From a bacterium (GTDB lineage Bacteria; Patescibacteriota; Minisyncoccia; Phycocordibacterales; Zambryskibacteraceae), in NCBI GenBank assembly GCA_030649135.1, contig JAUSGI010000008.1:152896-216895 (forward strand): DNA of 64,000 nucleotides. The letters run 5' to 3'. Position numbers and translations under genes: made by a program. Numbering within the stretch: the stretch's first letter is position 1; every line of letters begins with the position of its first letter. Positions 5,788-8,700 of this stretch are shown piece after piece. The notes below the pieces were generated by a model that was given only the letters and a program-made list of their open reading frames with translations, was not told the origin of the DNA and did not search any database.

Positions 5788-8700
5788 ATGAATAAGTTTG
5801 TCCACCTACATACCCATTCGCATTACTCTCTACTCGAAGCTCTGCCAAAAGTCCCGGACCTCGTCAAGAAAGCCCGTCTCTCCGGTATGAACTCGCTTGC
5901 CTTGACGGATTCCGGCAATTTGTACGGCGCTATAGAATTTTATAAAGAATGTAAGAAACAGGACATTAAACCGATAATCGGAGTCGACTTCTACGTCGCT
6001 TTGCGCACCAGAAACGATAAAGAAGCGCGTATAGACAACGAGCATGGCCGCCTGGTACTCCTTGCCGAGAATAATCTGGGATACCGAAACCTCCTCAAAC
6101 TGGTGACCGATTCCTTCTTGGAAGGCTTCTACTACAAACCACGCATCGACAAGGAGTTGATTGAGAAATACCGCGAGGGTCTCATCGCTATTCTACCGAC
6201 ATCCACTTCGGCAGATGTAGAGGAGAAAGCAAAATATTATAAAAGTATCTTCGGCCCGGACAACTTTTTTCTGGAACTTACCAGCCATCCGGAGGTGAGA
6301 GGCCACCAAGAAAAGATGCGAGAAAGAATCGCCTTCGCCCAAAAGGCGGGGATCTCTCTGGTTGCCGCCCATGATGTCTACTACCTGGAACCGGACGATA
6401 AGTCGGCGCGAGACACCTTGCTCTCCATCCAAGGTCATCTTAATCTAAGCGGAGATAGCGGAGTCTTCGGCAAGGATGTCGAGAATCTTTCTTTCATTAG
6501 TAGCGAGGAAGCCAGAGAATACTTCAAAGAAACACCGGATGCCATAGAGAACACGCAAAAAATCGCCAGGAGATGCAATATTGAACTTGAACTCGGCAAA
6601 TGGGTCTTCCCCAATTATGTGGTCGAGAGTGGCAAGTCGTATGACGAAGAGCTACATGATGTGGTTTATGCCGGATTTAAAAAGAGGAACCTGCCCCAGA
6701 ATGCCGAAACATTGGAGCGAGTAGCATATGAATTAAAAATTATTTGCGGTAAGGGTTATTCTCCATACTTCCTGGTTGCCGCCGACCTGCTGCGCTATGC
6801 GCATGAGCATGGCATTTTGACCAATACCCGTGGTTCGGCCGCGGGCTCTATGGTTACCTACCTTTCGGGCATCACCACCGTTGACCCTCTCAAATATGCC
6901 CTGCCCTTTGAACGCTTCCTTAACCCGGACCGCCCCTCACCGCCGGACATTGACCTTGATATCGCGGATGACAGACGGGATGAGGTCATAGAATATGCCC
7001 GTACAAAATATGGCAAAGACCATGTAGCCCAGATCGGCACCTTCGGCACCATGATGGCCCGCGGGGCGGTACGCGACGTCACCCGAGCACTCGACTTCTC
7101 GTATACCTTGGGCGACAAAATAGCCAAACTGATTCCGCTCGGCGCTCAAGGATTCCCCATGACCCTCAACCGAGCTATGGCGGAAAATCCGGAACTTAAA
7201 AAACTCTATGAAGAAGACGGGGAAGTAAAACGAATTATCGACATGGCTCAAAAAATAGAGGGTAATGCGCGGCATATTAGTGTTCATGCCGCCGGTGTAG
7301 TAATCTCGCCGGAACCACTCGTCGACTACACTCCCCTTCAGTACGATACCAAGGGAGAAAAGAAAATTATTACCCAGTACGACATGTACTCCATCGAGGA
7401 AACCGGGCTCTTGAAGTTTGACTTCCTGGGTATCAGAAACCTCTCCATTATTGCCGAGACTCTCGTCCGTATCGAAAAGATTGAAGGTAAATCAATAAAG
7501 ATAGCGGACATACCCATAGACAATCGTAAGACATTTGAAATGCTGACTCGTGGCGAAACGGAAGGCACATTCCAACTAAACGGCGACGGTATGACGCGAG
7601 CCCTGATGGAACTGAAACCTAACTCTATTCACGATATTAACGTTATGGTTGCCCTCTATCGTCCGGGACCGATGGACAACATCAAGGAATATATCGCAAG
7701 AAAACACGGACAGAAACCGACGAGCTATATCCACCCCAAAATGAAGAATTTCCTGGACACTACTTATGGGGTACTGGTTTACCAAGACGACCTCATCATG
7801 ACAGCCATTGAAGTGGCCGGCTATTCCTGGGGCGAAGTCGATAAATTCCGTAAAGCGGTAGGCAAGAAAATTCCGGAAGAGATGAGAAAACAACATATTA
7901 TCTTCGTCGAGGGCTGCCAAAAGAATGGCGGCATGAATAAGGAGAAGGCTGAGACGCTTTGGAAACTTTTTGAACCATTTCAGGGTTACGGCTTCAATAA
8001 AGCTCATGCGGCCAGTTATGGTCACATCGCCTACGTCACGGCTTATTTGAAAGCAAATTTTCCCGCTATCTATATGTCCGCCGTACTTACGGCAGAATCC
8101 GGTGATGTGGAAAAAATAGGAGTTATGATAAAAGAGTGCAAGCGCATGGGTATAGAGGTTCTGCCCCCTTCTATAAACGAGAGCTTTTCCCAATTTACTG
8201 TTGTTAAAGACAATGTTCCCCTAGGAAAGACCTCGGGGTACCCCGAGGTCTTTCCTAGGGGATACAAAATCCGTTTTGGGTTGACTACAATCAAAAATTT
8301 CGGAGAAGGCATATCCAGTTCCATTACAGCTGAAAGAAAAGTGCATGGTAAGTTCAGAGATTTAGAGGATTTCCTTGACTGCATCCGGGATAAAAATTTG
8401 AATAAAAAATCTCTTGAATCACTGATAAAATGCGGTGCTCTTGATGACATCCCCTCGACAAGCTCGGGACAAGTCGGCGAACGAGGCGTACTACTCGCCA
8501 ATATGGATAACTTACTTGAATATCATCGGGAAAGAATAAATGCGCCTCAAAACCAGGACTCGCTTTTCGGTCTCATGTCCGACACATCCACTCTGCCTGG
8601 TTTACGCCTCGCGAATGCTCCCGCCGCTACGCAAAAGGAGAAACTGCTGTGGGAAAAAGAACTGCTCGGTCTCTATATCTCCGGACATCCGCTGGAAGCA

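Follow-up and report, generated by a model that had tools for sequence, protein, structure and literature searches.

The closest described relatives of the element analysed here are the repetitive extragenic palindromic (REP) sequences of Escherichia coli and Pseudomonas, their doublets (REPINs) and the REP-associated tyrosine transposases (RAYTs; PDB entry 4ER8). The element is a perfect palindrome that is translated within the dnaE gene of an ultra-small bacterium of the Patescibacteria, in a stretch of 64,000 nt from contig JAUSGI010000008.1 (positions 152,896–216,895, forward strand) that is called the window below. Like the REPINs it is based upon short GC-rich hairpin units arranged as an inverted doublet, in which mismatches of the single units are compensated in the long hairpin; the gene of a Y1/HUH transposase is located between inverted copies of the hairpin, and there are neither terminal inverted repeats nor target duplications. 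Classical REPs and REPINs are extragenic and present in hundreds of copies, whereas both doublets of the window, and 11 out of 11 in public sequences, are intragenic and in frame, in a tiny genome. The transposase is longer (~220 aa), belongs to a divergent clade and falls below the NCBI cut-off for RAYTs. The dnaE palindrome is probably a REPIN-like, RAYT-associated mobile element that has survived in frame in a tolerant loop of DnaE.

The insertion of REP-type sequences into reading frames is of a known kind, because intragenic REPs were catalogued in 2013 by Di Nocera et al. (PMC3733652). That catalogue describes intragenic REPs as singles and dimers in several phyla, encoding ~7–30 residues, with examples from Opitutus terrae, Thauera, Thioalkalivibrio and Rickettsia conorii. 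Many of these are in genes of replication and repair (uvrA/B, ligase, DnaE2 and the R. conorii dnaE), and the same gene classes are occupied here (DnaE, LigA, UvrB, TopA). The present elements differ in phylum and sequence family, and in that an intragenic location is the rule rather than the minority. They differ also in the repeated occupation of one loop by different families and in the conservation of DNA at the same position, two features that the catalogue apparently does not report. Neither the GTAG nor the CGTC tag of the REP super-families of Di Nocera et al. (2013) is present at the ends of the units.

Rickettsia palindromic elements (RPEs; Ogata et al., 2000, 2002) are described in two later sources as in-frame palindromic repeats in many housekeeping genes, at positions compatible with the protein fold (PMC10969869, PMC3733652). 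A preliminary description of the window had likened the dnaE palindrome to these. The comparison stands in so far as in-frame palindromes are known there, and both are in-frame palindromic repeats in the protein-coding genes of a reduced genome, at structurally tolerant positions; but in-frame REP insertions are not limited to Rickettsia. Elements of the RPE-1 type are ~100–150 bp in length and encode 30–50 residues in Rickettsia, compared with 44–46 bp in Patescibacteria here, and no dedicated transposase is known for RPEs, whereas a cognate RAYT-like gene is present here. The sequences appear to be dissimilar. A more distant analogue is provided by the coding palindromes of nematomorph mitochondria (PMC6649704). 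These are perfect inverted repeats in translated genes, with both function and hairpin kept, but they are located in conserved protein regions, reach 284 bp and do not form a dispersed family linked to a transposase. The preliminary description was aware of no such element in a compact genome of this kind, and indeed no report of in-frame palindromes or REP/RAYT elements in the candidate phyla radiation (CPR)/Patescibacteria was found in the literature. What is different from the known systems is the lineage, the unit lacking tags, the divergent clade of 220-aa transposases and the exclusively intragenic location of the doublets in the sample, in addition to the recurrent use of the same loops and the conserved DNA noted above.

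The features of the window are itemized in Table 1. The core of the dnaE palindrome (8218–8261; CCCCTAGGAAAGACCTCGGGGTACCCCGAGGTCTTTCCTAGGGG) is its own reverse complement, as originally described, and the symmetry reaches one base past the core on either side (8217–8262). Two inverted REP-like units of 21 nt make up this doublet, with TA at the centre of the whole. The palindrome begins at codon phase 0 of the open reading frame (ORF) 5179–9006, and the in-frame reading proposed earlier is correct, giving the peptide PLGKTSGYPEVFPRG flanked by ...FTVVKDNV and YKIRFGL. The ORF contains the PHP, DNA_pol3_alpha, finger, HHH_6 and OB domains, which identify it as DnaE, and its relatives are from Parcubacteria/Zambryskibacteria-like Patescibacteria. 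The true start of the gene is near 5788, because the 1072-aa NCBI protein is identical. The mechanical ORF extends ~200 codons 5′ of this start (5179–5790), and the extension overlaps an ORF of the opposite strand (5125–5751), where relatives encode RNase HII. When the window was shuffled 20 times, palindromes with zero spacer reached arms of 7–11 nt at most, compared with 23 nt in dnaE, and a chance origin is excluded. Two other identities were considered and rejected. An intein or other spliced insert would comprise >130 aa with Cys/Ser and Asn junction residues, and the insert is only 15 residues with no domain. A role as an intrinsic terminator was dismissed by eye, there being no T-run 3′ of the hairpin.

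The site in DnaE was compared in an alignment of the 120 best matches, comprising the window protein (P0001) and 119 others with 68–82% identity. None of the 119 other top-scoring relatives contains the peptide PLGKTSGYPEVFPRG. The usual state at this position, seen in relatives with 77–84% identity, is a turn of 5–7 residues, for example FTVV-N-EKP-YKIRFGL, and locus L049 provides an empty site at the DNA level, in which AAA GAC GAT AAT AAG CCT passes directly into TAT AAA ATT. The loop is expanded in 34 of the 120 best matches, and ~72% of the close orthologs are unexpanded. Solved structures of Pol III alpha have an 18-residue gap at the insert, between two strands just before the helix-hairpin-helix (HhH) motif; this is seen in M. 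tuberculosis 5LEW and Thermus 2HPI, and in E. coli 2HNH by matched lengths. The palindrome is therefore an insertion relative to the orthologs, as had been supposed. In an AlphaFold model of the whole protein the mean predicted local distance difference test (pLDDT) score is 80, falling below 50 for residues 810–824, which are located between the strands 803–807 and 826–830. The insert is predicted to be a disordered loop at the tip of a β-hairpin, in agreement with the surface loop suggested in the preliminary description.

It might be thought that the peptide is an ancestral functional loop of DnaE with coincidentally palindromic coding DNA, the site being a naturally variable loop in Parcubacteria DnaE. 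This is extremely improbable. The ortholog alignment contradicts it, in that no other ortholog has the peptide; the same DNA read in other frames gives different peptides in other proteins, and the palindrome is far beyond chance. The same peptide encoded by non-palindromic DNA was also sought among orthologs; there was no such case in DnaE, and the peptide shared among LepA proteins is always encoded by palindromic DNA.

Related copies of the element were sought and are present, including a second perfect palindrome, absent from the preliminary description, that is read in frame in another essential gene, lepA (Table 1). In LepA the insert occupies the linker that joins the G domain to domain II, where the structures of Thermus EF4 are gapped. 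Compared with locus L010, the window LepA has an additional SSSHDSP just before the palindrome. The base state of the linker is 7 residues, and it is expanded in 54 of the 120 best LepA matches (the window protein included), with ~55% of close orthologs unexpanded. The lepA doublet is found at the identical nucleotide junction in the window and in L008, L010, L015 and L027, and recurs across independent assemblies (GCA_030648635.1 from NCBI, a Logan assembly of SRA data, and the JGI-scan contigs L015 and L027). The LepA peptide also occurs in other lineages, each time with palindromic DNA.

These copies bear on the possibility of an artefact of assembly or amplification, with the contig incorporating a palindromic read that was chimeric. 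Chimeric reads can yield perfect palindromes and the dnaE copy comes from a single contig, but the frame is preserved and the only stop-free frame is used, the flanks run on into conserved DnaE sequence, the lepA sister is at the same position in several independent assemblies (NCBI, Logan and JGI), and the repeat family is widespread in related genomes. There is hardly any likelihood of such an artefact.

Both palindromes of the window are predicted to fold into very stable hairpins. As single-stranded DNA the dnaE doublet forms a long hairpin of 22 bp (−27.5 kcal/mol, z = −9.4), and its free energy as RNA is −46 kcal/mol; the corresponding values for lepA are −27.0 and −48.5 kcal/mol. A single unit, with an 8-bp stem and a 5-nt loop, gives −7.9 kcal/mol as DNA with a perfect stem, and −4.6 kcal/mol for the mismatched half in the window. 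The preliminary description had each half as a hairpin with a GC-rich 8-bp stem and an AAAGA loop. The type of stem and loop is right, but the stem is not a clean 8 bp, since each half of the dnaE palindrome has one internal T.C mismatch. The mismatches in the window halves are T.C or G.A, while the long hairpins are perfect over 22–23 bp. It is the long hairpin that is the coherent unit, because the half-hairpins are mismatched.

The mismatches are closely connected with the reading frame. Each of these palindromes has exactly one stop-free frame of the three and is read in that frame, and the open frame is identical on both strands because the sequence is a palindrome. Compared with the perfect T:A hairpin found near transposase genes, the dnaE copy differs at position 17 on the left and position 5 on the right, and the lepA copy at position 5 on the left and position 17 on the right. 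Exactly these four substitutions rid the frame in use of TAG codons. They are paired as mirror images, and therefore the long hairpin remains perfect while each half-hairpin gains a mismatch. It was also considered whether the halves simply come as near to the T:A consensus as the frame permits. This was rejected, for a G that stop avoidance does not require is retained in those copies whose reading is PRKDLG. Perfect symmetry of the long hairpin together with the absence of stops fits all the copies. Mismatched units within a perfect doublet are reportedly the defining pattern of REPINs, as proposed by Bertels and Rainey in 2011.

Templated correction of quasi-palindromes is established from studies of E. 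coli and T4, and the doublets might in principle have arisen, and been kept perfect, when replication switched template at quasi-palindromes (snap-back synthesis, or ectopic gene conversion between copies), with the transposase gene a bystander that is by chance flanked by similar hairpins. Where one copy differs from another, the change is always present in both arms as a mirror image, as such correction would give, and the spacer ranges from 2 to 5 nt among the copies. Template switching nevertheless accounts for the upkeep of symmetry and not for dispersal. The same ~45-nt sequence in unrelated genes and genomes requires the movement or transfer of a defined unit, and single hairpins consistently bracket the transposase gene. 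We consider this origin highly unlikely.

The 21-nt half-site motif has five matches in the window, where 0.01 would be expected. These are both halves of the dnaE palindrome, both halves of the lepA palindrome, and the hairpin right after ORF 58382–59044, which encodes the transposase; a sixth, more divergent copy is located just upstream of this ORF. The dnaE palindrome thus belongs to the same family as the hairpins flanking the RAYT gene at 58382, as the preliminary description had it. No decayed copies beyond the four known sites were found in the window at either the DNA level (≤5 mismatches) or the peptide level.

Hairpin scans of species-representative genomes (the source genome not being among them) and JGI metagenomes returned 40 loci. 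The representative genomes gave seven matches, three of which (in Bacteriovoracaceae, Solirubrobacteraceae and Saccharibacteria) are isolated singles and possibly due to chance. Public single hairpins have a perfect stem (CCCCTAGG-AAAGA-CCTAGGGG), and 24 of 42 are located ≤800 nt from a homologous transposase ORF. Their usual arrangement is as inverted pairs ~700 nt apart that bracket the transposase ORF, found on at least 11 public contigs. By contrast with the singles, none of the public doublets, which are on JGI metagenome contigs, is near a transposase gene. All 11 are in frame inside long intact ORFs, and they too have mismatched units and a better-paired long hairpin. The hosts identified by Pfam are UvrB, topoisomerase I (TopA), an M50 protease, GatC and LepA, and one public single hairpin is inside the NAD-dependent DNA ligase (LigA). 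TT is found 5′ and AA 3′ of the unit in 25 of 42 non-redundant copies (~60%), so that the full unit is probably 25 nt. The family consensus is TT-CCCC[T/G]AGG-AAAGA-CCT[A/C]GGGG-AA, 21–25 nt in length. The in-frame hosts (L012, L013, L017, L034, L035 and L019) are weighted towards DNA transactions (DnaE, LigA, UvrB and TopA), alongside GatC, LepA and the M50 protease; this bias may reflect targeting, or simply long multi-domain proteins with linkers.

The transposase gene is ~50 kb from the dnaE palindrome. Its product scores 31 bits with Pfam Y1_Tnp (cut-off 23), and the residues of the HxH motif (H78 and H80) and Y140 are invariant across 40 homologs. An AlphaFold model with a pLDDT of 83 has as its top PDB match in Foldseek 4ER8 (E 6.8e-5), the complex of the E. 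coli RAYT with a REP hairpin. The TnpA proteins of IS608 and ISDra2 come next (E 0.01–0.2, probability 0.9–1.0). There are >7,900 homologs of the transposase, mostly in Parcubacteria, some of them named RayT by JGI. The transposase fold, the HUH/Tyr chemistry and the subterminal recognition hairpins are shared with the IS200/IS605 elements (the ‘peel and paste’ elements IS608 and ISDra2), but the unit moved here would be the hairpin or doublet alone, and the transposase gene appears to be fixed at a syntenic position (in the window, L009 and L044). Miniature inverted-repeat transposable elements, with DDE-derived terminal inverted repeats and target-site duplication, were also rejected; the enzyme here is of the HUH type, and there is no direct repeat at the junctions of the inserts (GTT/CCCC...GGGG/ATAC in dnaE; AATT/.../GGGTTC in lepA).

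On the coding strand the order in the window is 5′-AAAGA loop, gene, TCTTT loop-3′, which is the opposite of that in the homologous loci L004 and L007. In the latter loci the C-terminus of the transposase (...SPRKDLGEG) is encoded by the downstream hairpin. The full-length window transposase is absent from the protein collection searched, where only a 146-aa fragment (P0247) is present. A 1515-aa LVIVD-repeat/beta-propeller protein is encoded directly downstream of the transposase locus (59075–63622, minus strand), and the neighbourhood of large protein, transposase, TPR protein, MurJ and LepA is syntenic in L009 and L044.

Table 1. Palindromes, hairpins and associated genes of the window
Feature	Coordinates	Strand	Details
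Perfect palindrome in dnaE, 46 bp	8217..8262	.	44-bp core 8218–8261; 23-nt arms, no spacer
Left half-site	8218..8238	+	CCCCTAGG-AAAGA-CCTCGGGG; one T.C mismatch in its own stem
Right half-site	8241..8261	-	Identical to the reverse complement of the left half-site
Host gene dnaE (DNA polymerase III alpha)	5788..9006	+	1072-aa product identical to NCBI MDO8590285.1
Sister perfect palindrome in lepA, 46 bp	53286..53331	.	CCCCGAGGAAAGACCTAGGGGAATTCCCCTAGGTCTTTCCTCGGGG; minus-strand reading in lepA gives PEERPRGIPLGLSSG
Host gene lepA (elongation factor 4)	52065..53891	-	Identical to NCBI MDO8590341.1
Single REP-like hairpin 5′ of the transposase gene	58340..58360	+	TGACGAGGAAAGACCTCGTGG; TGACGAGG-AAAGA-CCTCGTGG
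Y1/HUH tyrosine transposase gene, RAYT-like, 220 aa	58382..59044	+	Pfam Y1_Tnp; Foldseek 4ER8
Single REP-like hairpin right after the transposase stop codon	59045..59065	+	CCACGAGGTCTTTCCTCGTGG; CCACGAGG-TCTTT-CCTCGTGG; inverted relative to the upstream hairpin

The dnaE palindrome is probably non-autonomous and mobilised by the RAYT-like transposase. The enzyme would recognise the hairpin on single-stranded DNA, and would move single hairpins or doublets with no target duplication. As ~91% of the genome is coding, most landings would be intragenic and lethal, and the visible copies would be the survivors. These would be copies that add a multiple of three bases, are free of stops in the frame used, and are located in a loop or linker able to tolerate ~15 extra residues; in dnaE the surviving site would be the tip of the β-hairpin that directly precedes the HhH motif. 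Pro and Gly, encoded by the CCCC and GGGG ends, would be suited to loops. The element would be transcribed and translated as a part of DnaE, with no benefit to the protein implied. We infer that selection rather than targeting lies behind the in-frame loop positions.

In other Parcubacteria the DNA at the expanded DnaE and LepA sites comprises palindromes of several unrelated families. In the dnaE of L045 the doublet consists of two 22-nt arms separated by 8 nt (3940–3995; GGACAAGGTCCGACCTTGTCAG-8 nt-CTGACAAGGTCGGACCTTGTCC), and the dnaE of L046 (gene 793–3813) has a perfect 48-bp palindrome built on CAGAGG-CAATT-CCTCTG (AACCCAGAGGCAATTCCTCTGTAG/CTACAGAGGAATTGCCTCTGGGTT). There are two separate doublets in the single lepA gene of L044 (8648–8690 and 9029–9070; AAGGTCAGACCTT, AAGGTCnGACCTT, CAAGGTC-A-GACCTTG), where the syntenic transposase is flanked (2400–2480 and 3160–3270) by CAAGGAC-G-GTCCTTG and GCAAGAAC-G-GTTCTTGC hairpins. 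The flanking hairpins of L044 resemble its own in-gene doublets, and thus the type of the flank and the type within the gene change together, the window being the first case of such agreement and L044 the second. A further family of LepA linkers, AHGQxGKFAxAGTAF (L047), has no clear palindrome in its DNA; it is either a decayed insert or unrelated, and was not counted. LepA was also placed in a rough neighbour-joining tree, with no support values and the linker masked. The AAAGA family, with seven carriers, is spread over ~6 places in this tree, and the AAGGTC family, with 19, over ~18. This scatter suggests repeated gain, loss or replacement.

Several observations weigh against a REPIN-like element moved by this transposase. 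A single contig is the only source of the dnaE copy, and just two doublets (plus two singles) were seen, within 64 kb of a 217-kb contig. The best NCBIfam model for the transposase is REP_Tyr_transpos, but at 40 bits compared with the NCBI cut-off of 80 for RAYTs. A plain phmmer search of the PDB with the transposase finds no RAYT, giving only a non-significant match to TrwC, and structure prediction with Foldseek was needed for the RAYT link for that reason. The hairpins flanking the gene in the window (CCAC...GTGG) differ from the doublets (CCCC...GGGG) in one compensated stem pair. That the transposase is the mover we infer from association only. The closest relative of the window, L009 (ENA ERZ27247831 k141_69476), has a LepA 93% identical outside the insert and was expected to contain either an empty lepA site or the same element. 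Neither was found. The site (9020–9080) is occupied by an unrelated hairpin, CTAGGACATCCGATGTCC, present twice in direct orientation, and the syntenic transposase gene (2621–3292) has only a degenerate hairpin with no AAAGA hairpins, and because of this counter-example the pairing of flank and in-gene types is not valid in every genome. Lastly, a neutral selfish insert does not explain the near-identical DNA of copies at the same position in diverged lineages. Over 585 codons of lepA outside the element the third-codon-position identity of the window with L008 and L010 is 45–49%, compared with 16/16 and 15/16 third positions inside the element. For gatC in three lineages it is 40–50% outside the element, against 13–14 of 15 inside, and some gatC copies are visibly decaying. 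Selection at the level of the protein cannot give such conservation of DNA. Three kinds of cause can be envisaged. The element may have been inserted again and again at a single nucleotide; it may be converted by other copies, or corrected on its own palindromic template together with selection for the sequence recognised by the transposase; or the hairpin may have a function for the host.

The last of these leads to a different account, that the hairpin is retained for a role in the DNA or RNA of the host, even if its origin was mobile. For example, a 22-bp double-stranded RNA stem in the dnaE and lepA mRNAs could be a site for RNase III or ribosome pausing, or the DNA a site for gyrase or a REP-binding protein. 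Such a role would be in keeping with same-position copies that are nearly identical while the synonymous sites of the host are saturated (lepA and gatC), with the perfect symmetry of both window copies, with the stability of the RNA hairpins, and with the intragenic location of every public doublet and none in intergenic sequence. It is however unlikely, since no expansion is present at these sites in most of the close LepA and DnaE orthologs, unrelated palindrome families fill the same loop across lineages, with a change of family in the nearest relative, the source genome alone has the dnaE copy, and there is visible decay of some gatC copies.

A wider proposal combines these elements, and is put forward tentatively as being open to considerable doubt. 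Coding sequence may be the normal habitat of the REPIN-like doublets of Parcubacteria, with several families repeatedly colonising the same loops (in DnaE, LepA, GatC, UvrB, TopA and LigA), after which the DNA would become near-invariant while the gene around it is saturated at synonymous sites. If so, the copies would be actively homogenised in dependence on the transposase, or would be re-inserted at targets defined to the nucleotide, or else the stable hairpins would serve the host from within essential mRNAs or genes, and each of these would be a coding-resident REPIN-RAYT partnership without earlier description. The genomes of Patescibacteria are usually taken to be streamlined with little room for selfish DNA, yet here transposase-linked repeats persist inside essential proteins. 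The inserts show where loops naturally tolerate insertions in DnaE, LepA, UvrB, TopA, LigA and GatC, and the small HUH transposase with its 21-nt hairpin is a tractable pair for biochemistry. Conservation at the same position above that of synonymous sites bears directly on the question of how REPINs relate to their hosts, as parasites, neutral passengers or beneficial partners. In addition, the inserts are a source of indels and of inflated apparent divergence in the marker genes on which CPR phylogeny is based, and could be mistaken for assembly errors.

Four other palindromes of the window (23125–23157, 23795–23821, 44943–44978 and 58307–58339) are intergenic, terminator-like hairpins outside the REP-like family. 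That at 44943–44978 is a perfect 36-bp palindrome (ACAAAACTCACCCCGATT/AATCGGGGTGAGTTTTGT) followed by a T-rich stretch, right after a small pilin-like ORF, and resembles an intrinsic terminator, with no relation to the REP family. The window also contains five tRNA genes in two small clusters (45807–46486 and 50836–51288), which match the Rfam tRNA model with 55–69 bits.

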